A stretch of 64,000 nucleotides of DNA, taken from NCBI GenBank assembly GCA_050084515.1, contig CM114271.1:33232001-33296000 (forward strand), given 5' to 3'. The position numbers and the translations under genes are program-made. The notes under the pieces are model-generated. The model made no database searches, was not told the DNA's origin, and worked only from the letters and a program-made list of their open reading frames with translations. Below, piece after piece: positions 1,208 through 54,305 of this stretch (its first letter is position 1; each line of letters begins with the position of its first letter). Origin of the DNA: Blasia pusilla (Eukaryota).

Positions 1208-2987
1208 TTCCTTGCCTAAATACTCTATCTTTTGTAAGGAATTTCTATATTCATACTCTCAAGGCAATTCTTTTGATATTATAGAAGCTACTTCTTTTTA
1301 TGATAAATGGTGATTGAATTGATTTCCAATCATACATTTTTTTTATCCAAGCAGAATTCTCTCCAACTACAAAAGTTTTTTATTGAACCGAGTATTTTCC
1401 TACTCAATCTTGTCATGGTTTTTCTTATTTGCATTATTATCTTAAATGATATGACTATGTATGATTCTATTGCAATGTCGTTGGACATTACTCTATCTCC
1501 TTGCTTATTTTGTTTTACACGCTCTTCTTTAGTCGTTTCTTTTTTTTGTTTGTGGTTCCCCTCTTCATCTTCAATCTCTCCACTATTGTCTTAATACTCA
1601 TATCTCCATCATATTTTCTACATTTCTCCCCATCTTCATCTTATATCCTCTCCAAAATCTCCTCCTAAATATAGCTTTGATCTACCACTCTCAAAATCCC
1701 ACTTGTTTGTCATCCTTACATACCTCATCCAAACCTTTGTTTCTTAATCCCATCTTTTCTACCCTTATCCCTTCTTCTCCTTCTTCATTACCTTACTTGC
1801 CACAATATCGTCATTTATCATCATCTCATTGATTTTCCATTGCTCACCCTTAAAATCCTTCTTCTTCTATTTATGTCCATGCATAAAGTTTGTTTCTTAC
1901 TTCATGATAAAGAGATTGCTTAAATAGGGATCAAATGACTTGATGTTATTGTTGATGGATGCATGGTCCTTCAATCCCTGCCCCATATCTCCTTATCACA
2001 TAATCCCTACTTTAGCCTCATGCATGAGGGCATGGTTAAGAAAATCAATCTCCTTTGATATTTACATCAGAGTCTTCCCTATCCTAAATTCTACATAAGC
2101 ATAATTATTGCTATTTGTCATATTACACAACAAGCAACGCTTTTCCACTACAAATATTTAAGGGTAGAAAATATGGGAGTTGAAAAAAAGGTTTAACCAA
2201 CTAAATTTATGAGTTGGCTATCCTACACTAATTTTGTAATCCTAATGATCAAATGTAGAGCATTATAACTTTTGTGGGCTAATACTAGGATGGAAACCTA
2301 TTGTTATCTCATGACCAAGACATGAGTTGCAAAAGTAAGATGTGAGCCTTGATGCCTATCTTAGATGATGATGGTTTAACGTGAAAGAGTATCATCAAAC
2401 AATAGATGAATCTTGAAAAGAATCAAGTTCCATAAGATTTAGACTCTAAGAAGATTGCAACCTAGCTTGGAACCTGATGAAGGATTTGGGGATTTTCCAC
2501 ATTTGAAGTCATAACAACTAGAATCGAGATAAAATTTGGAAACATGGTATTCCATGGAATGTTTGTGAGAAGCTGATTCTATTGCACTAAAGATCTAGAT
2601 AAAAATATGAGAAATTTTTCGAAAAGTGCCAAAAGAATTTGGAATAATAGGTTGGATTAAGGCCCACAAGAATTGGCCAAAGAGAAATTCCTTGGATAAA
2701 GGGAAGGGATGGGATTGATGGAGTTCTCTAGAATTTTATATAAGGGGGAGAATCTTGGGGGGGAGTTTGGAACCTTAATCCCACCTTAGAAGCCATAAAG
2801 ATTGAACCAAAAGCACAAAATAGATTGAGAAGTTGGAATTAGATTCTTGATACCAAGCCAAGTTCAATTAGTCTTATTTTTGGGACCCTAACCTTAGATC
2901 TTCACCAAGGACCTCAAATATTGAGTTTTGGATAGAGAAAAATTTTAGGTCTATAGATTAGGCAATTAAGATTGCTAGGAACATAAG

Positions 2988-3103
2988 TGTGGTGCGCATA
3001 CACATCGCTACACAACATACATCGCTGTCACTGAACACACACGATCCCATGCTTACTCATGGCATCCAAACAACGAGACAAGAAGTACCAAAATATTTCC
3101 AAT
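2988..3103 (-). repeat. Repeat A2 (3' terminal repeat of element 1)
   Basis: Direct repeat of 3652-3779 (catacacat.gctacacaacatacatcg...gtaccaaaatat.tccaat). Confidence 0.9.
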
Positions 3104-3298
3104 AAAATAAGATCCAATCTCTCTCACAACACCATAATTCTCACGTGTGTGCACTCTCACATATCTCTCTCAATGTCAAACCAAAACCACTCTCCTAATG
3201 AGAGGCTTGGGTTACACTCACAAGGCAAGGGACCATAGCTTCCGCCGCCTCGTGCCAAAAGGTTCAACAAAGAGAGAATGAGCTCTTAAACACACACA

Positions 3299-3333
<35 letters not shown>

Positions 3334-3649
3334 TGAAGTATACCCCCCTCTCCCAAGCTCTCTTCATGTTAACCTATGCTCCCAAGTCACCTCCTTGGCT
3401 CTTGATCTGATGTAGGAGGTCAAGGGCCACTTACCAAAAAAAAGAAAATCGACCATATACTCAAAAGGGTACTTACCTAAAATAGTAAGTTCCTCAATAT
3501 GGCTCTAAATGAGCCGAAACGAAGGGGAAACTTGGTCTCTCAGATTTCCCAGGGCCTTAGCAGGTCATCCTCGACCTCCTAAGCCTGTCCTCTATTATTT
3601 GTGAAGGCGCTCTACTAGATCTCACTGATCTATCCTAAAGGATGTGACA
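3104..3649 (-). repeat. Repeat B2 of element 1, with (CA)n(CT)n expansion at ~3290-3331
   Basis: Direct repeat of 11622-12137. Confidence 0.9.
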
Positions 3650-3651
3650 AT

Positions 3652-3779
3652 TGTCGTGCCCATACACATGGCTACACAACATACATCGTTGTTACCGAAC
3701 ACACACACAAACATGCACGATCCCATGCTTACTCATGGCATCCAAACAACGAGACAAGAAGTACCAAAATATCTCCAAT
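3652..3779 (-). repeat. Repeat A1 of element 1
   Basis: Direct repeat of 2988-3103; joined to B2 by GTGACA-AT-TGTCGT. Confidence 0.9.
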
Positions 3780-3959
3780 CGTCCCCTTAGCTGGTGGTTA
3801 GATCCCTCTAACTCTAGATAGCCATCTATCCCTACCTACCATGATATACATCTCTCAAACGCTAAGAGCAAGAAGATCGGATGCTCATATAGCCCTATCG
3901 TTAGTCGCCTTCTTGTCATCCATGTCCCAGATGCAAGTCAAAATGTAGAACTACCTACG

Positions 3960-4110
3960 CTATGTACATCCGGGACACATCCATCGTCCCTCAAGAACCC
4001 TAGTGAGAGGTGGCGTCAGACATGCATATGCCATCCTCTCGAACACCCATCACATACTAGCATAGTGGCTGCACCACGAGCGAAATCACACAACATACAT
4101 CTCAAGCCTG
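3960..4110 (-). other. PHD finger at the integrase C-terminus (element 1)
   Basis: CMLC...MLVCDGCSRGWHM(frameshift)CLTPPLTRVLEGRWMCPGC, i.e. C4HC3 with the conserved W, then stop. Confidence 0.85.
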
Positions 4111-5100
4111 CAAGAACTACTGCTAAGCTCAGATCAAGTGTACCGTCAATGTTTGGAAGATGAAATGACGCATAGTTACGCACATGATCCTTCCAAACCA
4201 TACCACCACGTCCCTCCAATAAGAGAACACCGGATGGCAAAACCTCACGCACTTTCAAGATGATGCGCCCTGCAATCACATCCAAGATCGTGGGTGCCGT
4301 CTGTTGCAAATTGACATATTCTTTTGGATGAAACCTCCAATAGTAGGTCGATAATCACCTCCCCGAATAATTGCATACCTCAATATATCCCGATGTTGTG
4401 CAATCGCCAAGTTCTCAAACGCCATGGGCATCACTCTTCGAAACAACTCAACCCTCTGAGAACATGCTCGCATCCATACATCAGGGTCATCAAGGTTCAA
4501 CACCTCACCAACATCTCGACGAATGGCCGCACGTAAATCTGGCTCTCATCCATACAAAAGCAAGTACGGTGAGAAAGACGCTAAGGATGCATGTCTGCTA
4601 AATCTGTATCCCATTTCCAATCATGACAATTGGAGGGCCCAATCTCCTAGGTGACCTCTATGCAAGCCATACTTGCGTAATCCTCTCTTTATCATCTGCA
4701 CAACCCTCTCCGCTACTCCATCCGCCTCAAGATGATCTCGCAAAGTGGTGCGGTGGTCAATCAGTGCCTAATTACACAAGGCTTGAAACTCCCAGCGAAA
4801 CTCTGTACCCTGGTCTGTCAATATCTCAGCTGGTGTGCCATAATGACTCAACACTCGACCTAGGAAGGCATACGCTACTCCCTCACTCGCTTTGTCAAGC
4901 AATGCAACCAACTCTATCCACTTCAAGAATTGCTCGACCATCACCAACACATAACGACTATGGCGTTCCGTCAAAGGCAAAGATCTTGCAAAATCCAAAC
5001 TCCATCTATAACCTAAATCCATGGTCAGAAGTGGATGCAACTATGGAGTCGGAGCATTGAACAATGCTCGGACTTGATCACACACCATGCATCTCGCAAC
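4110..5100 (-). pseudogene. DDE integrase (degenerate; most of the HHCC region deleted compared with element 2)
   Basis: RWSLDFA...LVMVEQFLKWIELVAL...PAEILTDQGTEF; C-terminal 'LAIAQHRD..RY', 'ILKVREVLPSGVLLLEG'. Confidence 0.9.
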
Positions 5101-6480
5101 AAACTGCTGAGCATCCCAGGTCTATGTACCACTTGGAAGTGATACTCCCGCAATAAAAGATCCCACCTCGCAAGCTTCCCTATAAGCTTGTCGGACTCCA
5201 TCAACCACTTAAGTGGCTGATGATCAGTAATGATGGTAAAGGGATTGCCGAATAGATAACATCTGAAATGGGCGATAGCCCACACTACCGCCAAGCACTC
5301 ACCCTCATACGAGCTATACTTTGCCTCAATAGTGTTGTTCGAGCGACTAGCGTAAGCCATCATAAACTCTCTACCATCATCGTCATGCTGGGTGAGCACG
5401 ACTCCAAGCCCCAACATGCTCCAATCGGTATGCAACTCGAAAGGACGCCCCCTGATGGGTCTCCTCAATATGGGCGCGGACGTCAATATATCCTTGAGCA
5501 TTTGAAATGCTCTCTCTTGCTCATCCCCCTAGTGCCACTCCTAATCCACCTTGGTCAGCAAGGTCAGCGGCTTTGCAATCGAGCTAAAATCCTTCACGTA
5601 CCGTTGATACAAGTTTGCCAATCCTATGAATGTACGAACTCGACTCACATCCGTAGGGCGTGGAATACGCGAAATAGCCTCTGCCTTCATCTGCTGCACA
5701 CCAAGGCCCCTTGGATATATCGTATGACCCAGGTACTCAATCTGGTCGTAGAAGAACTTGCACGTGCCTGGATGTAGTTTCAGCCCATGTAACTTCAATC
5801 GTCGAAACACCTCCTCTAGATGTCGCTCATGCTCCTCAACCGTAGCACTAAAGACTACGATGTCATCAACATAACACATAGCAAAATCCAAACCTGCCAA
5901 GATCCTATCCATGACCCTCTAAAACTTAGCCGGGGCATTCTTTAACCCAAATGGTAAGAACCGCCAGTGGTACAAACAATCCTGCCTATGAGGATGGATG
6001 CCCCAAAATGCCGTCTTCTATCTGTCCTCCAATTTGATAGGCAATTGAAGGTATCCGACTCGCAAATCCAATGAACTGAAGACCTTTGCATGTCCAATCA
6101 CATCAAGGATCTCTTCAAGAACCCTACATATCGAATTTGTATGCCTATTGATAGGTCAATAATCTCCACACATCCGCCTATCTGTCCAGTTGCCATGCAC
6201 ATCCTTCTTGGCGGGCATGACAATGGCAGAGGCATACTATCCATACGACATCTCCACTAGTCCTACTCCAACCAAGTCTTGGCTCCTACTGTGAATCAGA
6301 GCCCTCTCCATGTCACTGTACCTATAGAATCGTCAGAAGATCGGTGTGTCACTTGACAACTCAATGCGGATCCTTGGACCCTTCAGCGATAGCCAAATCA
6401 TGCATACTAAATGCAAAAAAACTCATGTAACTCCTAAGAAACTGGTGTATCCAGCGCCGCTCTCCTCTTGTCAACTTAGG
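5025..6480 (-). pseudogene. Reverse transcriptase and RNase H (degenerate)
   Basis: RMCGDY, LDLRVGY, LPFGLKNAP, CYVDDIVVFS; RNase H FELHTDWS...YEGECLAVVWA...ITDHQPL. Confidence 0.95.
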
Positions 6481-6759
6481 GCCCATATCTGGCTCCCAAG
6501 TCTCCATCGTGATTACAGTAGGACTCTTCGGAGTGGGTGTCGGTGGTTGCTATGGTGCAACCTCATCTCAGACAACAAAACTCTCATCTCCACGTGTAGT
6601 ACCGGAACCACACTCGATGCTATGACTATCATCTCCTGGCATACCTGCAAAACATCCCAAGAAGTCCAAGGGTGTCTCTCTTGATCATCCCTAGTGTGTC
6701 GATCTCTTCGGATCTCGTCCCCTGCGACTTCCTCAACCGTCTCGGTCTAAGCTAAAAAT

Positions 6760-7580
6760 CCATGTCAAGCAGTTCAGGTCCATCGCTTGACCCAAGACAT
6801 GACGTCATGATGCCTCCGATAGTGACGATACTGCCGTCACTCATGTGGGGAATGCAATTGCTCGCTTACGCTCATTGGCCTTGGGCTCCACCAACCTCTA
6901 TACATTATCATCCCAAACCAAGCCAGATCCGGCCTCCTTGACTGCATAGGAAGCGGGAAAACTCACCAATGTGGGAAAGGCTACCCGTGACATGCCGATC
7001 TTGTTGATCATCGTACCTCATGTGGGACCAAGTTGGTCCACCAAAGACACGGGCGGTGTGCTCTAGAACCTACACTCACCGCATCTAAAAGCATTGTTGA
7101 GCCGATCCATGCACGCACTTGATGTGCACTCGTCACTACTCGTGATCTCGAATCGCCAAAGATCGGTACATTCTCCAGAATATATGCTGGAGGATTGATG
7201 CCCCTGCAAGTGTCACAAAATCCACATCATCTCCCAAAATAACATGGATCAAGTGTCAGCTAACCCGCTACCTTGGCCAGCATGCGATTGGCCCTTACAC
7301 GACCAACCAGCAATGACCAAATTTATGGCCCCTACCCGCTCCAAGTCCCGCGCCCCCAACAATGAAATATCCCGCGGTAGGGAACTGTGGTATCCATGGA
7401 CAGCGGACGTAGACAAAAAGTTGGGAAAACGGAGGCGTAACTGCGCCACATGGTGAAGTGAAGCGCGCCTTGCAACATCATCGATCTCCACATACAAGTA
7501 CTACTGCACGCGTACTTTTGCTTGCAAAACAACAGCTAACCCAATGCTGATCCCTCCAAAGAGATCCAACACCCAAATAC
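6760..7580 (-). pseudogene. Retrotransposon-borne DNMT3-like C5 cytosine methyltransferase domain (degenerate)
   Basis: Read directly from the minus strand, in order: motif I VLDLFGGI, II YLYVEID, IV NLVIAGWSCKGQSHAG (PC to SC), VI YILENVP, VIII SRAHRPCLWWTNL, IX ANERKRAIAFP, X RHVLGQAMD. Confidence 0.88.
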
Positions 7581-7919
7581 CCTCCTCTAGGTGCACCACA
7601 TAATGGGTGTGGTATCCAGGGCGTCATCATAGCACTCTCTACTACCTCTGATCCGTCACACTCTAGTGCAAAGGTCTCGCTCCACGCAGTTTGCACATGC
7701 TCAATGGCTAAGAGTCGAAGCTCCTTAGTTGAGCCCCAAAGTGGCACCTCTCCTCCACGGAGTGATGCGGCTACCATGATACTCCTCTCCATAGAAATGT
7801 TAATAACGGGAGTATCCTTTGCATGGACATGTCCCCCAATCAAGTCACTAGGCCAAGTGATGGCGCTGCTAAATGCTGCTAAGGTCGCTATCTCTCCTGG
7901 CTGTCGCTCAATCAATGCA

Positions 7920-8340
7920 TATGTAAATCGAACGGGTAATGATCTAAGGCACCCATCACCTAACTGCCATCATGGTCTGTAGGACGCTGACTCCTCCCAA
8001 TAATTCAGGGAAAACCCCATCGGGTACAACACTGCTCCACCAACCAAGACGTCGTAGGACTCTACATCGGTCACTATCGCCTTGGCTCGCACCATGGACT
8101 CATCTTTAGGATGTCTCGAGAGAATCCTCACCACGACCTCCTATCGGGATATACTATGTGGTACTTGCTCCACCCAAGGATGTATGGATCCGGAATGGAC
8201 AACGCTCCACATCAGCTCTCGTCAAGCCCAATCCTCTGAATGACGCTTTCCCCAACGTCAGGGGTTGCGCTCCTCAATCCAACAATACGAGTTGCGGACT
8301 AAAAGCTCTACCTCCTGGACTCACCAATTGGAAGACCTCT
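7920..8340 (-). pseudogene. Retropepsin-like aspartic protease remnant
   Basis: QLVLLD*GAQP (D-S-G-A with Ser codon mutated to TGA) at ~8261-8295; downstream 'YDVLVGGAVL' flap/GxD-like region. Confidence 0.7.
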
Positions 8341-9199
8341 CCCGAGTATCTAGCAACCCAACACCAAGAGAAGCCATGGCACGCTCTATCGCGGATCTAG
8401 CCGACATCTCCGCCATCCTAGCAGCCGTAGCCTACCATGAATCTGACGTGGACGGCCCGAGCATCCGCTCCAAGGGCAGGTCCATCACCTCCTCTACAAT
8501 CACCTCTGAACGTGATGCAAGAACTCCAACTCCACGCTCACATAGTGTAGCGGGAGCCAAAACACCTCGGCGGGCGTACCACCCAATGTCATAACATCGG
8601 AAGCAGAAAATAGCGGAGCACGGTACACCATCGTGGCCGCCCCCAACATCGTACTCAACACATGCTCCTCCGAGCATCAACAATAAGAGTCGTCGCATTC
8701 GTTCTCCCATGGCCCTCCATGTTTACATATCAATAACATCACCAACTCTCCGGGAACTCTGATCAAGACCCATTGATGAGGTTCTCATTGCCTCAAACAC
8801 CGTGAAAGACTGAGGAAGCCGGTCTGTTTCCTGCCTTCCCCTCGTTGTGGATCCAACTCTGCAGCTGCTCCACGCGTCACAATTGCGGCGGCCTCCATTT
8901 GGGCAACCCTGCATATCCAACCAAGATCCTCCATATCTCTAGCTGCTCCATATGATGTCAATGCCAGGGATCCGCCATCGGGTAATCTCAATGCCATAGG
9001 AGCAATCTGCTCAAGTAGCTGCTGTATCTGAGCAACCATCCCAACCTCACGCCCGACGTCTCCCTCGACTCGTCTAGGTGGTGGGACTCTACCTCCTCTA
9101 TGGGCAACTCCACCAACCTGTTGGGCAACTCCAGCTCCTTGTCCCCCAATGGGACCACATGGTGCACGATCTCTAGCCCACCCGGAACGACTACTCGCT

Positions 9200-10370
9200 T
9201 TGGTGCCCTCTCTGGCACCCTGAGTCCGGACGTAACTCAGGTTGTAAATTGAAACACCTGGCATGTGTGTGACCATATCTTTGACAATATAACACTGATA
9301 ACCTCTTGGTGCAGCACCATCTCCTCCTCCATGCAGAGGCACACGTCCATGACCCTAACGAGTGCAATTGCACTAATGATGGGCTCCACCACATGACCAA
9401 CAAGTAATGGTAGGCGACTGCTGGTGAGCTGCATATGAAGGCGTAGGTCTCTATGGAATGGCCTCTCGGTATCCTCCCTGCGCTCACGATACCACAGTCA
9501 ACCTATCTTGGAGTCCAAGTTGCTGCACTGGTGGTGCAGGCAATCGTGACTGCTCGCCTAGAACCCATGGTGGCTACGCTCTCCTCCGCCATGTTGCGCT
9601 CAATATTCTTGGCGGTCCTAAAAACATCTCTCAACGTAAGGGAGGTGCTCATAAGAAGCATCCCCTCCTGCACTTGTGTCCCCACGGTCCGGTTCAGCAT
9701 CGCATACCATGACTGGATAGCCTGAGCCTCTATCACCCCTAAGTGACGTTGATCAACCGACGCAAGCAAGTGTAAGCCTCACCCAAACTCTCACCCGGGC
9801 GCCTCTCAAATCGTGGATGCTCCCCCACATTTCCGTCCGTACCCCCTGGTAGCTCCCCTCATTTCAACAAAGAACTCAACCACAAGGTTGAACCTGGGAC
9901 AAACCCCACTAGCATAGTGCAACTGCTCCAACGCGATTGACCCCTCCTAAAACATCACTAGTGGAAGAGGAAGTAGCCTCTCCTGACTCCTCCTCCTCAT
10001 ATGGGAATGGCTCTGTCCATGACACATAGTGTGGATTATAGTAGAGTCACCATGCTTCAATCTCCTGGGCTTATATGTGGGAGAAATCATGGTAATTATC
10101 CATGGGCACCCCCTCTAAATGATGGAACATACTGTTCCATGCTGTAAACGGGTTGAACTCTGTAGAGTTCCTAGCCCGTGGTGAGTCACACCAACTCCTA
10201 AACTCCGCAATGAAGTCGTGTAGCTCTATAGTGCCTACAACACCCGAAAACCTATGCGGTTCTCTACCCCGATCGTCCATCCCGTACGCCCAACTGGTAT
10301 GACCACTCAATGTGTACGGTGGATCACTAATACACTCCTCTATATGCTCCCCCTTGTCTAAAGACGACAT
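9200..10370 (-). pseudogene. gag remnant with CCHC zinc knuckle
   Basis: Gag-like 'FSGVVGTIELHDFIAEFRSWC'; frameshifted knuckle C..CQRYGHTHARC at ~9255-9300. Confidence 0.7.
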
Positions 10371-10955
10371 AGAAGGAGATCAAGGTCGTCCCTCACGTCA
10401 AGACCCTCAAAACCTCGCACCACTCTAGGTAAACCCTACAAACCTCCTTGATGTGCGGTGCAGGTCGAGCGGTCCATTGCGGCACTGGCAACACGGAACG
10501 GCTAAAAACGGCATAGCACTCGAGAATGGGGTGCGGCACTAGGCGGCATACCCTCCTAAATCAACAATTCACATGCTCTGCTCCTTAGTGAAGAATCGGC
10601 TTCACAATCAAGATGATGCGGTACAGCCACGAGCGGCATGGCGTGGAAATTGGCGGCTACGGGCGTCACGATACGGTACTCGATCGTCGTCGAGCGGCTA
10701 CCAATCACAACATAGCAGCATGAAATGAAAACTCAAAACCATAACTCGAGGTCATCTGCCATCACTAGTTGATGACGAAACTGCGATGATGGTGGCGGCC
10801 AAAACAAAGTACGTGGTGGCGGTGCAAGTCAGAGGATCAACGGTCGTCGTGGAAGACCCTCCACTCTGTTATGGCGGCAATGAAAACCAAGGGTGGACAA
10901 TGGCCGAATGCGGCTCTAAGCAGCGCAAGACAGTGGCGGCGGCCGACGGTGGGCG

Positions 10956-11055
10956 GTTGACGGTGACGGTTGACCATCGATGGTGATGGCAGACCATCGA
11001 TGGTGATGGTTGACCATTGACGGTGATGGTTGACCGTTGACGGTGATGGCCAACG
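10956..11055. repeat. 20-bp tandem repeat (~5 copies) in the element 1 leader
   Basis: Unit approx. GTTGACGGTGATGGTTGACC. Confidence 0.8.
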
Positions 11056-11621
11056 CCAATGCGGCGCTGGTTTAGGGTTTGAACAATTTAACCCTAGAAA
11101 TCGCCTAGCAATGGAAAATTTGCAAGATTGACCATAAATTTTTGTCACAACTCCAAATTACGCACCGTTTGTTGTACAGTGTGCACAACTTTAGGATCTA
11201 CAACAATATCAAAAACTATTTTGAATCAAATATTTCAGTAAAAACTGACAGGGACTGTCGTAAAGCCCAATATCTCTTTCTCCTACACAAAATTCGGCGG
11301 CTCTTCCGTGCTGATTTCTCTCAACGAAAATGTAAAACCTATGAGAACACAAATCAGCAAGCTACATGGTGCTCTTGAGAGCACGAGCATGGAGCAATCT
11401 GCGCCCATACTCAATTCCTATCGAAAATTGGGCAGCACTTCCGCATGCCACTCTCCTGTACAAAAAAATTAGCAAAGCAAAATAGCAAACTCGCACGGCT
11501 CTTGCTCCGGTGAGCACTACCATAAGCCATGAAGTGGGGAAAACAGTCCTCCAACTTGCACCAAACATCGAGCAACGACCAAGCTCCCCTATGAAGCTCT
11601 CTCACTCACTCATTCTATCTT

Positions 11622-12137
11622 TGTAAAATAAGATTGAATCTCTCTCACAACACCATAATTCTCACATGTGTGCACTCTTATATATCCCTCTCAATGTCAA
11701 ACCAAAACCACTCTCCTATTAAGAAGGTTGGGTTACACTCACAAGGCAAGGGACCATAGCTTCCGCCGCCTCGTGCCAAAAGGTTCAACAAAGAGAGAAT
11801 GAGCTCTCAAGCTCTCTCTCCTTGAAGTATTACCCCCCTCTCCCAAGCTCTCTCCATGGTAACCTATGCTCCCAAGTCACCTCCTTGGCTCTTGACCTGA
11901 TGTAGAGGTCAAAGGCCACTTACCAAAAAAAGAAAATCGAATATATACTCAAAATGGTAATTACCTAAAATATTAAGTTACTCAATATGGCTCTAAATGA
12001 GCCGAAACGAAGGGGAAACGTGGTCTCTCAGATTTCCTGAGGCCTCAACAGGTCATCCTTGACCTCCTAAGCCTATCCTCCACTACTCGCAAAGGCGCTC
12101 TACTAGATCTCATCGATTTATCCTAAAAGACGTGACA
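11622..12137 (-). repeat. Repeat B1 (5' terminal repeat of element 1)
   Basis: High by-eye identity to 3104-3649; in sense starts TGTCACG and ends CTTATTTTACA. Confidence 0.9.
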
Positions 12138-12599
12138 CAAGCGTCATTTCACGTCCGTAAACTATCAAGGAAGTCCATCCCAATAAAATGAGAAATATCA
12201 AAGGTAAAAACTTGTACATACGTAAAATTGTGTGCCTTGGAATAACATCTAACATAGTCGATGTATATTCCTATAAGTACACACAATCTCTACAACCTCC
12301 TCATCACTATGGATTTCAAAACATTGATTGACTCCTTGTAGACCACTAGATTTCAAAACTTACCATCTAAAAGTTATGTTGACGTTGATGCATTCTATTG
12401 ATCCAACATAGTAAGAAAAACACAAGAAAGCATCTGTGTATCAATATGGCACCATCTTCTCATTGCTCCCTCCATACCTTCGAGTTTATGTCTTATTTAT
12501 TTGATATGTACATAGGTTGTGGCTGAACTATCTATCTCCTCATTTAGCCTATAAACCACATAAAAATTATACTCTTATTATAATAGAGCCCACTTAATA

Positions 12600-13350
12600 A
12601 AATTCCCCACAAGATTTTTGGACTCCATTAATGGTGCTGGTTTATGACTAATGATGAGTGTGAAGGGGATGTTGAATAAATAACATGTGAAATCTACCAT
12701 GGTCCGCACTAAAGTCAAATATTCTCCCTTATATGAGCTCTACTTTGCCTCTACTAATGTTCTTTGATTTACTTACATGAGCTATGACAAGCTCTCTTCC
12801 CTTCTCTCACTTTTAGGCCCAATATACTCCAATCCGTACATAATTAGGATGGATGATTTGTAATAGGTCTTAGTAAAATTGATAAGAATATGAATCAATC
12901 CTTGAGAGTATGAAACAATCATGCTTAATCATCTCCCTAATACCACACCAAATCAAGTCTTTTCAACAAAGTCAAATATTTTATGATCGCATTAAACCCC
13001 TTAGCATACCATTGATAGATTTTTTCTAGTCGTAGAAATGTTTAGACTTGACTCACGTGTAAAGGTCATGGAATGCGCACACTAGTCTTTACCTTTATCT
13101 AATGGACACCTTCCCCACATGGATCTATGGTGTGATCCAATTGTTGAATCTAATCGTTGAAGAACTTGCACTTGGGTGAATATAGCTTCAATCCATATAA
13201 TTAAAATCTTCAAAATAATTCTTCCAAGTGTTGCTTATGCTCCTCAATCGTGGAACTAAGATGATAATATAATATATGTAATATTGTACAAACTCCAAAC
13301 AAGCAAGAATCCTATCCATAACTCTAGAGAACTTCACAATGAAGTTCTTC
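12600..13350 (-). mobile_element. Highly degenerate RT/RNase H remnant of the same Gypsy family
   Basis: By-eye similarity to element 1 RT (aatcctatccataactct..., gaagaacttgcac...) and RH (cttatatgagct..ctttgcctc). Confidence 0.6.
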
Positions 13351-13900
13351 AAACCAAATAGTAGGTTTTTACTCCACTTTTTACATTGTTTTTCTTATTT
13401 AGTTTTAATTGTTGTTAGTTCTCCAAACCATCGTTGGAAGTCTTTCATTTCAATTAGATTACTAGTTATTTCTTAAATAAGATTTTTAGTTGTGGTTAAG
13501 TTAATTATGCTCATGATGTGTTGGATTGCTTATAGTGTATTGGATGATTAATCAGCTTACTCCTTCCACTCTGCATTAACATGCAAGGGTCTCTTTTGCT
13601 ACCCCTTCCCTTACTAGGAGATCCTCTATTTATTTTATGCTTCTTTTATTCACTTCAACTCGTGCCCTCTAAGGCCATGTGGCTTGAGATTAACTCCTAC
13701 ATACTTAATTAACCTTTGATGATATCTTAATCAAATAAGAAGGAGATGCAAATCGGTGTGGAGGATGCTCCAAGAAAAAATGTACCACAAACAATGACAT
13801 GTTGGTTTCAACCACCTTTTTCACTTCATGTGTATTCTAATAAGGTGTTGCAGAATGAGCACCTAGTTTAATAGAAGTTGTAGACTAGCTTTGCATCACT

Positions 13901-21301: not shown

Positions 21302-23005
21302 TACGGAACGGAAGCCTGCCCAACCAGGGTCCGGGTAGTTAGTTTTGTGTGAGAAACCGGTACATTTTTATGGGATACAAATACAAAGGAGAACCCGTGT
21401 ACTCATTCGGTTTTTAGCCGGTGACTGGCTAAAAACTGTATCGGCAGTTTTAAAATTTAACCCCGTTCTCCCCGGACATTTTGCCCACCTCAGTACTACA
21501 CCATGTATATGACATAAGTTAGCCAATGATGCGAACTCTGAACGAGATAGCCCAAAGGACATTGTATACCATGGGATACGCAGATCTGATAGAGGGAGAG
21601 GTAAGGAGGGATACGAGAGCCTTCGTGTCGTTGTTGTCCCTTGAGGAAGAGATCCAACCCATTGTTGGGAGTGATGCCGAGGAAGGGGGATCGATGAATG
21701 AAATTTTCTTTCTCCAGTCACGATGCTCTTGCTACGCACGAAAGGTCATTTCTCTAAAAGTTCCCGATAATTTCTTCCCTTCCCAAAGTGTAACATGTCC
21801 ATTTTTCTTTCTTCAATTAGGAGTGATATCCAAGTCCTCCTTGAAATAACTCCCACCTCTCTGTGAAAGGCTTAAATAATATCCCACTCTCCTCATTCAT
21901 CCCCTCTCTTCATTATTATTAAAACCACTTCCCCTCTTCCAATATTCTAATTCATTCTCCCATCCCAAATGTGCATAGGGCACTAATGGGACAAAATAGT
22001 ACCTTTTATAATATTTTTTCTTATTATTCATGCAGTGTTAGAATCTTGGAAACACCAGTGTACATGGTTAGATTTGCGTAAAAAATTGAAGGGAGAACTT
22101 GTTAAATTTTCTTTTTTTATTTCAATGGGGTTCGAAGAAATTTGAAGTTATTCCTTTCGGTTAACGTGGACCTCCTAAACTTAGAGGGTGGTCCCATATA
22201 AATGGAGCGTGAGTCTGCGTGACTGTTGGAGGAGGATTACCACCCCGTGACTATTAAAGGAGGTGTCCCCATGGGTAGCCTATATCGGTTGACTAATCAA
22301 TCCATTTCGTATGGATCAGTCAACTTTGTTTGCAGGATTATACGCTGCTGCATGGGAGAATCGACGAAGTGCATGGCCACATTTACATCCAGTGCGAAGC
22401 GTTGCCGAACTGCACAGAGTCCCTGCAGTGGAACTTCCATGTGATCGATCGAGCTGGATTTCATCGACGACCTGCAACTAGAGTGATTGAGAGGTCCTGC
22501 AGGCTGGAGAGTTTTGACTAGCACACCACGCCCATCTATTCCAAGCTGACGGTGTTTGGAGTTTTTCAATAGGACCGACAATAAGCCACAAAGATCGGCC
22601 CTCAATTCTCGTATTCCCTCACTCGCTCCGTCGTCGGGAAGAAAGAAAAATACTTTGTGTCACTCTTATGCGGATAGATCGAAACTATTGCGATTTTCAT
22701 TGCCAGTCCGAACCTGAATTCGCACATTTGCAAATGCTTTTGGGGGGCCGACGGGTATCAAACTTCGGAGAAACCGCGTTTCCAGATCATGAAAATGTGC
22801 GCCAAGCTGGAAACCAGATTTAGTTCCCGAGTTTGACCTTGCGTCGTGAGTCAAGGTACATGGTCATGAGCCAGAGCATTTCTTCCACATCCTAGACTCG
22901 AGTATAAACCTCCCTTACTCTTGCAAGGAAGCGATCTGTTCTTGTAATCCGATTTTGTACACCTGAGGCTCGAGATCGCAAAAAGGGACCAGAATCGGTC
23001 GCATC

Positions 23006-26000
23006 ATGGGGAAGATTCAGATGGCGTCGAAGATGGGGGTTTGGACCATATGCGTGCTCGCTTTTGTGGGGATGACCTCAGCCCGTAAGGTGCACAGTCC
23101 ATGGCAGTACTGCTCTTCCGAAAGAGAGTTCGCAAAGTGCGAGAGCGTCGTGAGATCGGACTCCGACACGACACGGGATTCTTATCCGAAGTACAACTCC
23201 CCGTGTTGCAATTTCGTCAGGAACGAGCCTCTGGAGTGCTTCTGCAGCGCTGCGAACCATTTGACGTTCAAGTCCTTTACAGTGAACATCACCAAGGTCC
23301 GGGCATTGCCTCACAAGTGCAGTAAGGTCAACAGCAAGGGCATCGGGTTGGAGTGCGATGGTGAGACCGACACTTCTCCTCGATCAAATTGTTTAATAAC
23401 TTACTTCACTGTGGTTTCCTTCTTTGTGCATGTCTTGCCAAATGTTTTAAGTCGCCAAGCTGTGATTTGTGTATGGAATCGAATCAGTACCATTTCATTT
23501 ACTCGTCAACTCAGAATCCGAGTCTTCCGAGAATCTGAATCGTACATCATGTATTGTAACTTGTCTCTGCCGTTGGTGGATGTGCGTTTGCAGCCTGGCC
23601 ACTGCCTCAACCAGCGTCCATTTCCAACTCGCTATCTCAGTCTTCTCCCCTAAGTTCCCCACCTCCTCCACCTCCGCTACTCTTGCGCCCTCCACCTCCA
23701 CCTTCTCTACTCTTGCTCTCTCCACCTCCTCCATCTCATATCTTGAGCTCTCCACCTCATATCGTAAGCTCTCCACCTCCACCTCCTCTAATCTTGCATC
23801 CTCCACCTCATATCTTGAGAACTCCACCTCCACCCCATGTGACCTTGAGCCCCTCCACCTCCTCTGACCTTGCGCCCTCCACCTCCTATGATCTTGCGCT
23901 CTCCACCTCCACCTCCTCTCCTCCTGCACTCTCCACCTCCACCTCTAATCTCTAGCTCTCCACCACCTCCACCCCATGTGACCTTGCGACCTCCACCTCC
24001 TCGCATCCTGCGCTCTCCACCTCCTCACATCCTGCGCTCTCCACCTCCACCTCTAATCTCCAGCTCTCAAGCTCCTCCACCTCCTCTCATCTTGCGCTAT
24101 CCACCTCAACCTCAACCTCCTCCACCTCTAATCTCTAGCTCTCCACCACCTCCACCTCTAGTCTCCAGCTCTCCAGCTCCACCGCCTCCTATCACTAGCT
24201 CACCAACTCCTTCACCTCTAATCTCCAGCTCTCCACCTCCACCGCCTCTTATTGCCAGCTCCTTCACCTCTAATCTCCAGCTCTCCACCTCCACTTCTTC
24301 TAAACTCTAACTCTCCACCTCCTCCACCTTTGATCCTGAGCTCTTCACCTCCACCTCTTATAATCTCAAGCTCTCCTCCTCCTCCATCTTTAATGTTGAG
24401 CTCTCCACCTCCACCTCCTCCACCTCTAATCTCAAGCTTTCCACCTCCACCTCCTCTTATTGCTATCTCACCAGCTCCCTCACCTCTAATCTCGAGCTCT
24501 CCACCTCCTCCACCTCTAATCTCGAGCTTTCCACCTCCTTCCCCTCTAATCTCGAGCTCTCCGCCGCCTCCACCTCTAATTAAAAGCTCTCCACCTCCAC
24601 CTCCTCTTATTGCTAGCTCACCCGCTCCTTCACCTCTAATGTCAAGCTCCCCACCTCCTCCACCTCTGATCTCGAGCTTTCCACCTCCTTCCCTTCTAAT
24701 CTCAAGCTCTCCGCCGCCGCCGCCTCCACCTTTAATCTCAAGCTCTCCACCTCCTCTCATTGCTAGCTCACCCGCTCCTTCATCTCTAATCTCAAGCTCC
24801 CCACCTCTGATCTCGAGCTCTCCACCTCTAACCTCGAGCTCTCCACCTCCACCTCCACCTCCACCTTCTCTCATCTTGAGCTCTCCGCCACCTCTACCTC
24901 ATATCTCAAACCCTTCATCTCCACCTCCACCTCCACCTTCTCTAATCTCGAGCTCTCCACCTCCTCCATCTATGATCTTGAGCTCTCAACCTCCTCCACC
25001 TCCACCTCCGTCTCCTCTTATTGCTAGCTCACCTGCTCCTTCACCTCTAACCTCAAACTCCCCACCTCCTCCACCTCTGATCTTGAGCACTCCACCTCAA
25101 CCTCCACCTCCACCTCCATCACTAATCTCGAGCTCTCCACCACCACCTCCACTAATCTCAAGCTCTCCACCTCCCCCACCTCTAATCTTAAGCTTTCCAC
25201 CACCGCCTCTTCTAATCTCAAGCTCCCCACCTCCTCCACCTATGATCTCAAGCTCTCCACCTCCACCTCCTCTTCTCTTGAGCTCTCCACCTCCGCCTCC
25301 TCAAGTATCAAGTTCTCCACCACCTCCACCTCTAATCTTAAGCTCACCACCTCCTCCACCTCTTAACTTGAGCTCTCCACCTCCACCTCCTCTTATCGCT
25401 AGCTCACCAACTCTTGCACCTCTAATCTCAAGCTCCCCACCTCCACCTCCATTGCTAATCTCAAGCTCTCCACCACCACCTCCTCTAATCTTGAGCTCTC
25501 CACCTTCCCCACCTCTAATCTTAAGCTTTCCACCTCCACCTCCTCTTATCTCGAGCTCTCCACCTCCTCCACCTCTAATCTTGAGCTCTCCACCTCCACC
25601 TCCAGTGATTGCTAGCTCACCAGCTCCTTCACCTCTAATCTCAAGCTCCCCACGTCTTCCACCTATGATCTCGAGCATTTCACCTCCTCCGCCTCTAATC
25701 TCGAGCTCTCCGCCTCCGCCTCCTCCACCTCTAAACTCAAGCTCTCCACCTCCACCTCCTCTGATTGTTAGCTCACCCGCTCCTTCACCTCTAATCTCAA
25801 GCTCTCCACCTCTGATCTCGAGCTCTCCACCTCCACCTCCTCCAGTCTCAAGTTCTCCACCTCCTCCACCTCTAATTTTAAGCTCCCCACCTCCTCCACC
25901 TCTTATCTTCAGCTCTCCACCTCCTCCACCTCCATCTCCTCTTAACGCTGGCTCACCAGCTCCCGCACCTCTAATCTCAAGCTCCCCACCTCCACCTCCA

Positions 26001-28609
26001 TTGCTAATCTTGAGCTTTCCACCACCACCTCCTCTAATCTTGAGGTCTCCACCTCCCCCACCTCTAATCTTAAGCTCTCCACCTCCACCTCCTCTTATCT
26101 CGAGCTTTCCACCTCCTCCACCTCTAATCTGGAGCTCTCCTCCTCCACCTCTGATCTCGAGCTTAACACCTCTTGCGCTTTTAATCTTGAGCTCTCCTCC
26201 CCCCCCTCCTCAACCTCTAATCTCAAGCTCTCCAACTCCACCTCCATCTCCTCTTATTGTTAGCTCACCCGCTCCCTCACCTCTAATCTCAAGCTCTCCA
26301 CCTCCTCCACCTCTGATCTTGAGCTCCCCTCCTCTCACCTCGAGCTCTCCACCTCCACCTCCTCTTCTCTTGAGCTCTCCACCTCCACCTCTAATCTTAA
26401 GCTCCCCACCTCCTCCACATGTTATCTCGAGCTCTCCATCTCCTCCACCTCCAATCCCTAGCTCTCCACTTCCACCTCCTCTTACCGCTAGCTCACCAGC
26501 TCTGCACCTCTGATCTCGAGCTCCCCACCTCCTCCACCTCTAATCTTGAGCACTCCACCTCCACCTCCACCTCCATCGCTATTCTCGAGCTCTCCACCAC
26601 CACCTCCTCTAATCTCGAGCTTTCCACCTCCACCTCCTCTGATTACTAGCTCACCGGCTCCTTCACCTCTAATCTCAAGCTCCCCACCTCTTCCACCTAT
26701 GATCTTGAGCTCTCCGCCTCCGCCTCCTCCAGCTCTTATCTCAAGCTCTCCACCTCCACCTCCTCTTATTGTTAGCTCACCCGTTCCTTCACCTCTAATC
26801 TCAAGCTCTCCACCTTCACCTCCATCTCTGATCTCGAGCTCCCCTCCTCTGACCTCGAGCTCTCCAACTCCACCTTCTCTTGTCTCAAGTTCTCCACCTC
26901 CACCTTCTCTTGTCTTAAGCTCTCCACCTCCACCGCCTCTTATGGCTAACTCACCAGCTCCTTCACCTCTAATCTCAAGCTCCCCACCTCCCCCACCTCT
27001 AATCTTGAGCTCTCCACCTCCACCTCCATCTCCAATTTTGAGCTCTCCACCTCCCCCACCTCCAATTCTAAGCTTTGAACCTCCACCTCCTCTTATCTCA
27101 AGCTCTCCACCTCCACCTCCTCCACCTCTAATCTTGAGCTCTGCACCTCCACCTTCTTTGATTGCTAGCTCACCAACTCCTTCACCTCTAATCTCAAGCT
27201 CCCCACCTCCTCCACCTCTTATCTCGAGCTCTCCACCTCCACCTTCACCTCTAATCTCGAGCTCTCCACCACCACCTTCTCTAATCTCCAACTCTCCACC
27301 TCCCCTTATCTCAAGCTCTCCACCCCCTCCACCTCTAATCTTAAGCTCTCCACCTCCACCTCCTGTGATCGCTAGCTCACCAGCTCCTTCACCTCTAATC
27401 TCAAGCTCTCCACCTCCTCCACCCCTGATCTCAAGCTTTCCACCTCCTCCACCTCTAATCTTGAGCTCTCCATCTCCATCTCCTCTTATCACGAGCTCTC
27501 CACCTCCCCCACCTATAATCTCAAGCTCTCCACCACCTCCACCTATTGTCTCAAGCTCTCCACCTCCTCCACCTTTAATCTCGAGCTCTCCACCTCCTCC
27601 ACCTATAATCTCTAGCTCTCCACCCCCTCCTCCTCTAATCTCAAGCTCTCCGCCGCCTCCACTTGTTGTCTCAAGCTCTCCACCTCCTCCACCTATAATC
27701 TCTAGCTCTCCACCCCCTCCTCCTCTAATCTCAAGCTCTCCACCTCCTCCACCTGTTGTCTCAAGCTCTCCACCTCCTCCACCTATAATCTTGAGCTCTC
27801 CACCCCCTCCACCTATAATCTTGAGCTCTCCACCTCCTCCACCTATAATCTCTAGCTCTCCGCCACCTCCACTTGTTGTCTCAAGCTCTCCACCTCCTCC
27901 ACCTATAATCTCTAGCTCTCCACCCCCTCCTCCTCTAATCTCAAGCTCTCCGCCGCCTCCACTTGTTGTCTCAAGCTCTCCACCTCCTCCACCTATAATC
28001 TCTAGCTCTCCACCCCCTCCTCCTCTAATCTCAAGCTCTCCACCTCCTCCACCTGTTGTCTCAAGCTCTCCACCTCCTCCACCTATAATCTCTAGCTCTC
28101 CACCGCCTCCACCTGTTGTCTCAAGCTCTCCACCCCCTCCTCCTCTAATCTCTAGCTCTCCACCTCCTCCACCTTTAATCTTGAGCTCTCCACCCCCTCC
28201 ACCTATAATCTTGAGCTCTCCACCTCCTCCACCTATAATCTCTAGCTCTCCACCCCCTCCTCCTCTAATCTCAAGCTCTCCGCCGCCTCCACTTGTTGTC
28301 TCAAGCTCTCCACCTCCTCCACCTATAATCTCTAGCTCTCCACCCCCTCCTCCTCTAATCTCAAGCTCTCCACCTCCTCCACTTGTTGTCTCAAGCTCTC
28401 CACCTACTCCACCTATAATCTCTAGCTCTCCACCCCCTCCTCCTCTAATCTCGAGCTCCCCACCTCCTCCTCCTGTAATCTCAAGCTCTCCACCACCTCC
28501 ACCTGTTGTCTCAAGCTCTCCACCACCTCCACCTATTGTCTCAAGCTCTCCACCTCCTCCTCACTTGCAAGCTCCTCCTCACTCTCCACCTCCTCCTCGT
28601 ATAATTTGA
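23006..28609 (+). CDS. Secreted 8-Cys (nsLTP/prolamin-fold) plus giant Ser-Pro(4-6) extensin-like chimera; frameshifted, possibly a pseudogene
   Basis: Signal peptide (VWTICVLAFVGMTSA); C-C-CC-CxC-C-C in exon 1 (23006-23360); phase-1 intron 23361-23593 joins in frame to the SPn repeats; frame changes near ~23850, ~24255 and ~26505. Confidence 0.85.
27490..28560 (+). repeat. Homogeneous 30-bp coding tandem repeat ([ILV][ILV]SSSPPPPP)
   Basis: ~35 near-identical units with higher-order patterning. Confidence 0.92.
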
Positions 28610-30793: not shown

Positions 30794-33700
30794 GTCTCTC
30801 TTGCTAATCTATTATCTCAAAAAATAGTAATAATTTTTTGAGATAATAGATAATTTTGTGAAACAATTTTATTAATAGGTGCTAGTTTCATGGTTGAACA
30901 GAAACAGACATATCCATCCAAGGGATGCATGTTCCTAAGAGGTCCGCCTCGGGTTTTCCAGTACCCGATGACCCCCACGAGCTCGGGACACAAGAATGAA
31001 TGCATGCTTAGATTACGAGCAAGGTTGCACGAAAATAGACAAGTCCGTCCATGGGACGAACATGTCCACACATGACCATGGACATGGAAATTGGTCACGA
31101 GCCCGAGTTTTCTTGGCGCCCAGGTCAACCGTGCGGGCTCCACCCACACGAATAGGTGAGGGCTCGGATGAAGGGTGCGGGCTGAAGGCGGACCATAGAC
31201 GTGACTCGGGATGAGGACGAGCCTGACGCGGGCAGCCTCGTGGGCAAAGGCCAAGCTCCCTCACGGGCCTAGCGGGCTGGGAGTAGGCCTAGGGGTGAGC
31301 AAGGCCCAGGCTCGCAGGTTGAGTGCAAGCTGGGGGTAGGCACCCGCGCGAGCTTTTGGGCGGGCCAAAGGCAGGTTAGGGGTGAGCTTGGTACAGGCTG
31401 AGGGCGGGCCAGGTGTGGGTTAAGTTTGGATGCCTATCACGGGCCTGGCGGGCTTCCTGCGGATCAGACGGGCCGAGGGCAGGCAAGGGGTGGGCCGAGC
31501 AAGCAAGGGGGCTTGCGGGCCTATCGATGGCGTGGCTGGCTGCGGGTAGGCTAGAGGCGGGCTTGTCAAGCTAGGGCGAGCCAAGTGGATAGGGGGCGGG
31601 CCTGGCGGGCTAAGGGGCCGGCTAGGCGTGGGCTTGCAGGCTATGGGCGGGATGGGAATAGGCCACGTGAGCAGGGGGCGAGCCTAGTGTGGGCCATGGC
31701 TCGAGGATGGGGCAAGGGCCGACCTAATGCCAGCTAGGCGGGCCAAGGGCGGGTCTGGCGGGCTGGGGAGAAGGCCAAGCGCGGGCCCTAGAGCCTGTGG
31801 GTAGGCTAGGGGCTCGTAGGCCAGGCGAGCCAAGGGCGGGCCTAGGCGGGTTGGGGGGAAGGCCAGTGGGCCCTAGAGCTTGTGGGCGAGCTGGGTCTGG
31901 GCTAATGGTGGGCTGAGCGCGTGTAGGTTGGGCATGGGCGTAGACCTAGAGCACGCGAGTCCGCTGGGCACAAGCGCGGGTGAATGGTAGGCTGAGGGCG
32001 GGCTTGACAGGTTATTGGAGGGTTGATAGCGGATAGCAGTGATGAAGCGCGGTTCTAGTGGGGACTTAAATGCAATTTGTGCAAGGGAAGGATGTTTGAC
32101 GGCTTGAGGTGTTGGAGTAGGGTTGTTGTAGTAGAGAATAGGTTAGTTAGAAATGAGCGGAATTGAAGAAATAGGGATAGTATTGGTGGAGAGAGGAAGG
32201 AGAATGTTAAAATAGAATAGGATGGTTGTATTGGAAAATAGGTTAATTGGAAATAAAAATTGGTAAAGAAGTTAGGATAGGTGAAAAAGGAATCGGATAA
32301 GAGAACAAAATCATATTTGCTGAATGGTGATTAGTGGAGATGGTTTAGTAATAAATTGTAAGTGGGGGTAGATGATTTGGGGAGTTAGAAGGGTTCATTC
32401 TCTTCCTTCCATCCTCTCCTACATAAAATTGCTAATTTTTTTATACCCTCACAATCTCATTCCTCCCTTCATGTCTCTCTCTTTATTATTTTGTGGAAGT
32501 TTTTTTCTCCATAGATAGCTGAACTTGATAAATAAGAATATGTTTTGCTATTAGATAACCCTAAGAATTTAAGGTATCTCATTCATCTAGGTTAGCATAT
32601 TAATCTTTCTTGTTCATAATGATTATTCCAAGTTTGTTATTGGAGCATTCACGCACAATATTTGGTATAATTTGTATACATTTTATCGGTCGATATACCC
32701 TACTATTGATATTGTAAAATTTTTGCCACTTATCCAAATATTTTTGGATGGGGTTAGTATTTGCGTGTAGTCATGACCAAAGCTAGAGAAGTCCAACAGA
32801 TTGTGAAGGAATATTGGGAAGAAGTATAGATTGAAGGTGGAACATCAAGCATATGGCAGTGTAAGTATTGTTCCTATTCCATGAAAACCTATCATAACAC
32901 GCAAATGGTGGAGCATTTTACACGAGAGAGACGAAAAAAAAATGATGGGAATCAGGATATCCATCATGCCAAATTACGTATGAAGGTCCCTCCTAATTTG
33001 CAATGGGATATCCGGAACATGATACTTATGGGAAATTGACAAAGAAGGGAAGAAAAACCCTCAAGTGAAGTGGAGGAGATGACGTCATTACCAATAGGTT
33101 TGCAAAAGATAGGAAATAGTGTTTATGTTGTGTCAAATGTAGATGGGGTTGTGGACATGCCACCATGTGACAATCTGGAGGAATGTAGAGGAGTTTCAAG
33201 AGACTAGTAGTTTTGGGAAGAAGCAAGCCGATATGAGGGATTCTTTCTACATCCAAGGAATAGAAGTTGCAAGTAACATGTGAGGGAAGTATTTCTATGA
33301 ATGTGGAATACCCTTCAACATAGTACAACAAGATGATTTCAAACAAGCAGTGTTGGCAACAGAAAAGGTGAATGGTTATTTAAGTCCTAGTTATAAAAAA
33401 GGTGAAGGTTACTTAAGTACTAGTTACAATTCGTTGCGCATCATCCTACTTGAGAAACATATGGGGGAAGGTGAAAGAAAAGATGAACTGCATATTCGAT
33501 AATTTGCATTTGGGGGCCACAAAGATCACGGATTCTTGTACCAATATGAGGAGTGAGTCTTTAGTGAACATCATGGTCTCGTGTCCACAAGGTGGGATTA
33601 TGATTGAGTCGATAGACACCAAGGGTGAATCCCAAACGGTGGAATGGTTGGCAGGTCACATAGAGAGGACTATCATGCACATCGATCTAGAGAATGTGTT

Positions 33701-52975: not shown

Positions 52976-53165
52976 ACGGTTGATGATCAGTGATAAGTGT
53001 GAAAGGGTTGCCGAATAAATAACACCTGAAATGTGCCATGACCCACACTGCAGCCAAGCACTCTTCCTCATAAGAAATGTACTTCACCTCTGGAATGTTG
53101 TTTGATCAGCTCGCGTAAGCCACAACGAACTCCCTCTCCTCGTCATCCTTCTAAGTAAGCACTGA
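52976..53165 (-). pseudogene. Inverted RNase H fragment of the Gypsy family
   Basis: SYEEECLAAVWVMAHFRCYLFGNPFTLITDHQPL; antisense homolog of ~55419-55610. Confidence 0.88.
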
Positions 53166-53987: not shown

Positions 53988-54305
53988 ATGGATAGTTAAC
54001 CTTGGTATGGTTGAGCAGAGACGGATGCGAGTGTCATCCATGTGTCACGTCCACGAGTCGGAGCATTGCCTATAGGGTTTTTATAGGCATTGGCTGGGGG
54101 AGGGACGAGGAGAGATAGGCACCCATGGACTTCTTGGGACGTGGTTTGAGCAGAGAGTGCGAAGGCAGCAAGAGCAACACACGTTCATTTTTTGGATGTG
54201 GAGCATGGTGTAGGAGGTCAGAGTGGAGTGGTTGTTGTGGAGGTGGCTAGGACTGCTACATAGCAACCAAAGCCGGAGGTTACGTCCTCTCTAAGTGAGG
54301 TCACG

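Follow-up and report, generated by a model that had tools for sequence, protein, structure and literature searches.

In the charophyte alga Klebsormidium nitens a Gypsy retrotransposon has been described, KnitGypsy-Dnmt3, which carries a non-rearranged Dnmt3 domain in the open reading frame (ORF) of its Pol protein and is bordered by DIRS-like repeats (de Mendoza 2018, PMC5890265). SymbioDIRS-Dnmt3 of Symbiodinium, described in the same paper, likewise has a Dnmt3-type domain in retrotransposon Pol and repeats in the order A-coding-B-A-B, and its domain carried out de novo CG methylation in yeast; it differs in its DIRS backbone, in having a tyrosine recombinase and not a DDE integrase, in its dinoflagellate host and in being reported as an independent acquisition (PMC5890265). 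The EpiLTRs of Cymbomonas and Euglena are likewise long terminal repeat (LTR) elements with a cytosine methyltransferase, but their DNMT is placed as sister to DNMT4 and is accompanied by Dam and a chromodomain; the preprint on these elements lists streptophyte Gypsy-DNMT3 among the known cases (bioRxiv 10.64898/2026.05.21.726589). In this work we have examined a stretch of 64,000 nucleotides from the land plant Blasia pusilla (contig CM114271.1, positions 33,232,001 to 33,296,000 of the forward strand), which we call the window and number from its first letter. We conclude, with a probability of roughly 0.85, that about 2985-12137 is a dead copy of a Ty3/Gypsy element (element 1), whose family encodes an in-frame DNMT3-type methyltransferase domain between protease and reverse transcriptase (RT). 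As judged from its sequence, the family appears to be the land-plant counterpart of KnitGypsy-Dnmt3, a new member of a kind already known. Unlike the EpiLTRs, it is of DNMT3 type, lacks Dam and has a PHD finger in place of the chromodomain.

The domain order of the K. nitens element is known here from KFL_008720020 (P0359) alone, a collapsed model of 407 residues, in which the methylase lies upstream of the tail of the RT and of RNase H, as in the window. The first 125 residues of this protein are 34-44% identical to their best hits, and these include relatives of what we call type A, with the methylase beside the protease or the RT as in the window (in type B it lies between RNase H and integrase). 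The hosts are different, a charophyte alga in one case and a land plant in the other, and whereas the acquisition was placed 'in the K. nitens lineage' (PMC5890265), we find the domain in liverworts and mosses. The copy number in B. pusilla is very high, whereas K. nitens is said to have fewer copies than Symbiodinium (PMC5890265). In the open literature searched we found no report of a bryophyte Gypsy-DNMT3 element, though one may exist in supplements or in subscription journals.

The initial annotation, made from the sequence alone, had proposed a DNMT3-like methyltransferase between the protease and the RT, and this was borne out on the minus strand at 7593-6748, where alignment with 12 relatives delineates a complete domain of the DNMT3 type whose motifs run linearly from I to X. 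The reading comprises three pieces, 7593-7195, 7193-7023 and 7011-6748, with the following features:

6748..7593, minus strand: DNMT3-type C5 cytosine methyltransferase domain, pseudogenised (motifs, profile, tblastn)
7572-7537, minus strand: motif I, VLDLFGGISIGL
7500-7480, minus strand: motif II-like, YLYVEID
7320-7285, minus strand: motif IV, LVIAGWSCKGQS, with SC at 7302-7297
7181-7164, minus strand: motif VI, ILENVP
7070-7029, minus strand: motif VIII, GSRAHRPCLWWTNL
6888-6844, minus strand: motif IX, EPKANERKRAIAFPT
6795-6760, minus strand: motif X, LGQAMDLNCLTW

The three pieces are aligned collinearly by the relatives, giving a full domain of about 285-340 residues. In a tblastn search with the Marchantia protein P0202 the linked segments from protease to RT reached E 7e-130, with 60-68% identity over the methylase pieces, a match well outside what chance would give; for the Marchantia proteins as a group, whose alignment with the window runs from gag to RT, the identity over these pieces was 56-68%. 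The first piece, of 130 residues, matched 594 of 1.84 billion representative proteins at E<=1e-3, and 194 of these still at E<=1e-10. When the same piece was compared with the PDB at E<=10, 29 of the 30 matched sequences were DNMT3A/B/C or DRM2; no PDB match was found with the second piece, and the second and third pieces on their own gave no Pfam match. The earlier reading of motif VIII as AHRxRxxWxNL holds overall, except that its second Arg is Cys in this copy, and the replacement of the catalytic PC by SC was also confirmed, motif IV reading SCK where close relatives have PCQ.

Is the domain truly of the DNMT3 class, or could it belong to DRM, the DNMT3-related family of plants? A profile of 22 relatives matched DNMT3A (2e-24) and DNMT3B/C (about 1e-21) best in the PDB. 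The next-best solved relatives were DRM2 and tobacco DRM (6e-12 to 1.5e-9), which were matched only at residues ~227-353, the N-terminal half of the profile; M.HhaI (2e-5) and DNMT2 (0.009) followed, and no DNMT1 was found at E 0.01 or lower. The AlphaFold model of the Sphagnum jensenii relative P0163 has a predicted local distance difference test (pLDDT) score above 90 over approximately residues 100-420, and in a Foldseek search with it all chains listed among the top 48 ranks were DNMT3A/B/C, with target template modelling (TM) scores of 0.41-0.84, or 0.77-0.84 for chains of the DNMT3 catalytic domain only. Both profile and predicted fold thus agree with the initial annotation in favouring DNMT3 over DRM. 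DRM identity was rejected because the motifs run linearly from I to X, whereas in DRM motifs VI-X precede I-V, a rearrangement noted in PMC5890265. By motif order, by profile and by the predicted fold of an intact relative, the domain is therefore classed as a complete DNMT3-class catalytic domain. It resembles animal DNMT3A/3B/3C in its top profile and fold matches, in motif order and in a short target-recognition region, but it is only ~20-22% identical to them, is embedded in a retrotransposon polyprotein without PWWP or ADD, and its motif IV reads AGWPCQG or AGWECQG, unlike that of animal DNMT3.

The earlier annotation had suggested searching for PF00145 in a frameshift-repaired consensus. 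In place of a consensus we scanned 22 natural relatives, 18 of which scored above the cut-off with 29-54 bits. In the relatives the methylase is flanked either by protease and RT or by RNase H and integrase. The clearest case is P0200, a single ORF of 2138 residues in the order CCHC zinc knuckle, protease, methylase, RT, RNase H, integrase; P0101, P0198, P0258 (from Marchantia), P0325 and P0341 share parts of this protease-methylase-RT order within single ORFs. Among the first 200 proteins collected, 195 match at least one domain probe, 26 being of type A, 30 of type B and 131 having the methylase alone (these are mostly short). The order gag, protease, methylase, RT, RNase H, integrase is also found in 17 metagenome loci which are 64-73% identical to the window at the DNA level. 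Named methylase relatives come from Sphagnum jensenii, S. troendelagicum, S. fallax and Marchantia polymorpha (Mp_4g09160, Mp_8g17980, Mp_6g11220 and MARPO_0084s0073); in the S. fallax relative the methylase is at the same place and the RT homology is degraded. The closest named relatives of the window RNase H are from Riccia sorocarpa and Calypogeia fissa (75-78% identity), followed by Marchantia (64-74%) and Klebsormidium nitens (55-59%). The methylase proteins of Marchantia and Sphagnum and the RNase H relatives from liverworts support the earlier idea of a land-plant Gypsy lineage with its own methylase domain. A protein-cluster atlas returned 'Eukaryota, commonest Streptophyta' together with phage clusters at equal score, a result of little weight.

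The type B clade (P0012, P0047, P0060, P0092 and 26 others) often has a C-terminal PHD finger, and its only named member is P0244 of Cymbomonas tetramitiformis. Two further proteins from the collection stand apart: P0045 has a Dam adenine methyltransferase domain in addition to PF00145, and P0067, whose order (rve, RVT_2) is of the Copia type, ends in a weak PF00145 match. Copia-embedded DNMT3 in streptophytes is mentioned in a 2025 paper.

Could the domain be merely a fragment of a host DNMT3 gene which entered a single copy by nesting or by misassembly? The window copy is out of frame and broken, as such a fragment might be. Against this, the domain keeps its position and collinearity in the 17 loci, as it does in dozens of proteins of other origin, no PWWP or ADD domain was detected by Pfam in any of the 22 relatives scanned, reads cover both junctions at hundreds-fold depth, and the methylase and RT trees agree. 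In the methylase tree, which contains 110 full-length domains and the window, one branch with a Shimodaira-Hasegawa-like approximate likelihood ratio test (SH-aLRT) value of 99 splits 40 type A domains and the window from 47 of type B, and the window lies in a clade of 16 rows, with support 100, together with proteins of Marchantia and Sphagnum. In the RT-RNase H tree of 88 rows the type A and B labels require one change, and the window stands next to Marchantia P0258 and Calypogeia P0253. The two trees argue that the methylase has been inherited together with the element backbone. Passive capture and misassembly were rejected on the loci, the proteins, the junction depth and the agreeing trees, and we consider a host fragment refuted, with next to no probability left to it. 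Nor is the domain unique to this copy or outside the polyprotein frame, as the initial annotation had allowed it might be, given the in-frame ORFs, the 17 loci and the read depth.

That read depth comes from raw reads of B. pusilla mapped on 5400-8400 at a likeness of at least 85%. From about 1.4% of a single genomic run 42,387 reads could be mapped, 59 of them at least 99% alike; the summed depth was ~1170-2570x over the RT, 1660-2380x over the protease and linker and 270-1340x over the methylase, from which we conclude that the family has very many copies and that many of them contain the methylase. Reads by the hundreds leave the window sequence exactly at 7007 and 7015, which is expected if other copies retain a stretch that is deleted here. 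None of the 40 variant places listed from the reads, out of 693, is in motif IV. Three RNA runs cover the whole of 5400-8400, and their first mates fall on the plus strand at least 10 times as often as on the minus strand, which for most stranded libraries means minus-strand, that is sense, RNA. Most RNA reads are less than 90% alike to the window, so the transcripts come from other copies. Thus the methylase-bearing family is not only highly repeated in B. pusilla but also transcribed there in sense.

The methylase also shows signs of constraint. Nei-Gojobori comparison of the window with the metagenome loci gave a proportion of replacement differences (pN) of 0.30-0.43 and of silent differences (pS) of 0.72-0.74 over the methylase (4 correctable pairs), and 0.16-0.21 and 0.63-0.73, respectively, over RT-RNase H. 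Among the loci themselves the median omega was 0.55 for the methylase (108 pairs) and 0.40 for RT-RNase H (104 pairs). Replacement sites of the methylase have thus apparently changed more slowly than silent ones, and the domain appears constrained, less so than the RT.

Several observations weigh against our interpretation. The first piece of the window copy scores 19 bits with PF00145 (E 0.001), the Pfam cut-off being 22, and on its own it matches the PDB weakly, at E 0.029 or higher. All 17 metagenome loci are broken, so they provide no clean selection test; the omega of 0.55 is only modest, and silent divergence from the window is saturated. Depth over the methylase is about 45% of that over the flanks, which may reflect copies without the domain or its faster divergence. 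The Pro of the catalytic PC is replaced in both clades, by Glu in about one-third of the distinct rows counted and by Ser in a few others, and the K. nitens domain did not methylate DNA in yeast (PMC5890265). The authors called this last result inconclusive, since human DNMT3B failed in the same assay (PMC5890265).

The last two points raise the question of whether the methylase is a catalyst at all. The change of Pro to Glu could mean altered or lost catalysis, and the domain might have been kept as a non-catalytic partner resembling DNMT3L, or as a DNA-binding module, which recruits or misdirects the methylation machinery of the host. This is the main rival to an active enzyme: EC, SC or another reading replaces PC in many rows of both clades, also in intact long ORFs such as the 2138-residue P0200, and the inactivity of the K. 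nitens domain in yeast (PMC5890265) would accord with it. On the other hand, all 22 aligned relatives have the catalytic Cys, PC is read in about two-thirds of the type A rows counted, including the closest relatives of the window, ENV is the commonest reading of motif VI in both clades, none of the listed variants has lost R-x-R, and motif I is conserved as an F-x-G-x-G-like sequence, often FGG or FAG. With the yeast result as inconclusive as described above, we regard a non-catalytic role as unlikely, at about one chance in five.

How would an active methylase serve the element? We suggest that in live copies it would be made as part of Pol and then either released by the protease or left at the N-terminus of the RT, a step to which we give slightly less than even odds. 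It might then travel with RT and integrase and methylate de novo the element's own new cDNA or its insertion site, which we hold to be nearly as probable as not; self-methylation of the new DNA is an idea of de Mendoza et al. (PMC5890265). Perhaps, instead, the enzyme acts on host chromatin or on other targets, for example by damping host defence or by altering neighbouring genes. Possible effects on the host epigenome are discussed in PMC5890265, and the PHD finger, found C-terminally on the side of the integrase, hints at an element that reads chromatin; Pol, though, would be packaged with the element RNA, as follows from established retrotransposon biology, and we think this less probable still than a non-catalytic role. 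Methylation of the element's own DNA or insertion site remains the reading that we favour.

The copy in the window takes no part in any of this, since it is old and dead and makes no enzyme. Its methylase has six in-frame stops (at 7503, 7251, 7215, 6900, 6843 and 6807) and changes of frame at 7194 and near 7600-7585. Compared with the relatives it has also lost some 33-41 codons at 7023-7011, in the stretch that leads from motif VIII to the conserved 'VNKIG' block. Its catalytic residues are altered, with SCK for PCQ in motif IV and R-P-C for R-x-R in motif VIII, and motif IX reads ERKRA where relatives have ERERA. Since the family varies at the Pro of PC, the SC reading cannot by itself account for the death of this copy. 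In frames aligned to relatives we counted 18 stops in gag, 6 in the protease and linker, 6 in the methylase, 7 in RT-RNase H and 4 in the integrase. Compared with the majority of reads, the window has A/T for G/C at 190 places and the reverse at 89, an excess which fits C-to-T decay of a silenced copy.

Element 1 as a whole is an LTR retrotransposon of the Ty3/Gypsy type, about 9 kb long and on the minus strand (~2985-12137), with its Pol in the order protease, RT, RNase H, integrase. Around the methylase its parts are:

11624..12137, minus strand: 5' LTR, repeat A1, 86.1% identical over 548 columns to 3103-3649
8560..10283, minus strand: gag region, decayed, with the 18 stops noted above (tblastn with Marchantia P0202, residues 3-546)
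7975..8363, minus strand: aspartic protease; active site D*GA at 8279, DSGA in relatives (tblastn with P0258, P0214 and P0018)
7601..7969, minus strand: protease-methylase linker, conserved among relatives, of no known family (alignment with relatives)
6400..6746, minus strand: methylase-RT linker (tblastn with P0202, P0241 and P0246)
5541..6389, minus strand: reverse transcriptase (Pfam RVT_1, E 2e-13; tblastn)
5116..5528, minus strand: RNase H (Pfam RT_RNaseH, E 2.6e-34), in a 167-residue frame, 5025-5528, open from stop to stop
4278..5115, minus strand: integrase (Pfam rve, E 3.2e-9; tblastn)
4016..4100, minus strand: C-terminal PHD finger, truncated by a stop (Pfam PHD, E 0.018, first 25 of 47 positions)
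3649..3779, minus strand: repeat B, just upstream of the 3' LTR, 84.7% identical over 131 nt to 2985-3103
3103..3649, minus strand: 3' LTR, repeat A2, 86.1% identical to the 5' LTR
2985..3103, minus strand: repeat B', just downstream of the 3' LTR, the second copy of B

The assignments of protease and PHD finger are in agreement with the relatives, of which P0010 and P0071 give Pfam protease matches and others contain a PF00628 PHD finger. The protease-methylase linker lies within an open frame of 163 residues (7969-7478), different from the frame of the methylase, and is modelled as low-confidence helices in the AlphaFold prediction for P0163. The two LTRs are direct repeats of 514-547 nt (11624-12137 and 3103-3649), and the layout A-coding-B-A-B is found in element 1, in a second element of the window (element 2; repeats at 57417-58178) and in the metagenome locus L014 (12547-13115). 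Such split repeats are usual in DIRS/PAT-like elements, which use a tyrosine recombinase. Here they co-occur with a DDE integrase. The same layout is given for KnitGypsy-Dnmt3 in the legend to Fig. 4c of PMC5890265. No matching short target-site duplication was found in the flanks at either candidate right end of element 1, the copy being old. An AT-rich RT remnant (12549-13363, minus strand), 64.5% identical to element 1, adjoins its 5' LTR.

Element 2, on the opposite strand, preserves a trace of the methylase in one feature:

53989..54146, plus strand: the last residues after methylase motif X, and the methylase-RT linker (tblastn with P0202, P0206, P0163 and P0246)

The initial annotation had suggested that element 2 resumes just after motif X, near 53990, with the domain deleted. 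Indeed 53989-54030 reads WIVNLGMVEQRRMR where Marchantia P0202 has WIVSLGLAEQRRLR just past motif X (10 of 14 residues identical), these residues also match Sphagnum relatives, and the methylase-RT linker and then the RT come next. No methylase homology was found upstream of 53989, where AT-rich, unrelated DNA is accompanied by a hAT-like ORF and by a fragment of RNase H in inverted orientation, nor was there any other methylase trace in the window. Element 2 thus descends from a methylase-bearing element which lost the domain. The inverted RNase H fragment (52974-53165, minus strand) is 74% identical to element 1. The open ORF of 503 residues (50123-51634, minus strand), which matches DUF4371 weakly and has a zinc finger of the C17orf113 type, is probably an inserted hAT-like transposase; it and the fragment both lie within element 2.

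Elsewhere in the window, the plus-strand region 22967-28609 begins with an ORF (22967-23653) that has a signal-peptide-like start and an LTP_2 lipid-transfer domain, followed by an open frame of ~4.4 kb (24222-28609) made of SSPPPPPLI-type repeats with extreme C-richness and a GC skew of -0.74. Either a hybrid proline-rich or extensin-like gene or a satellite could account for this region. Genes for LTPs belong to land plants. Remnants of plant-type DNA transposons are represented by a DUF4218 ORF (42837-43463, minus strand, E 1e-36) and a DUF659 ORF (33417-33824, plus strand, E 1e-21).

What could these elements mean for their hosts? Our widest proposal is a tentative one, which we put at only about one chance in three: Gypsy-DNMT3 would be an old streptophyte lineage with split direct repeats, persisting in liverworts and mosses including Marchantia polymorpha and, in B. 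pusilla, still transcribed from hundreds of copies, whose working methylase, partly with a Glu-Cys loop, marks its own new DNA and contributes to bryophyte methylomes, and whose sister clade moved the domain between RNase H and integrase. The presence of the lineage in both groups dates its origin to before their split, or else points to transfer from one to the other. Retrotransposons are normally the targets of cytosine methylation, and an element with its own de novo methylase would reverse this relation. The only streptophyte case that we found in print is that of K. nitens, a host which is hard to manipulate; with gene models in Marchantia polymorpha and in several species of Sphagnum, and with abundant sense transcripts in B. 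pusilla, the question becomes testable in a tractable model plant. The two fixed positions in Pol and the frequent change of Pro to Glu offer new leads on how the module works and, if our proposal is true, the two positions would mean that the methylase is a long-lived, selectable module of retrotransposons.

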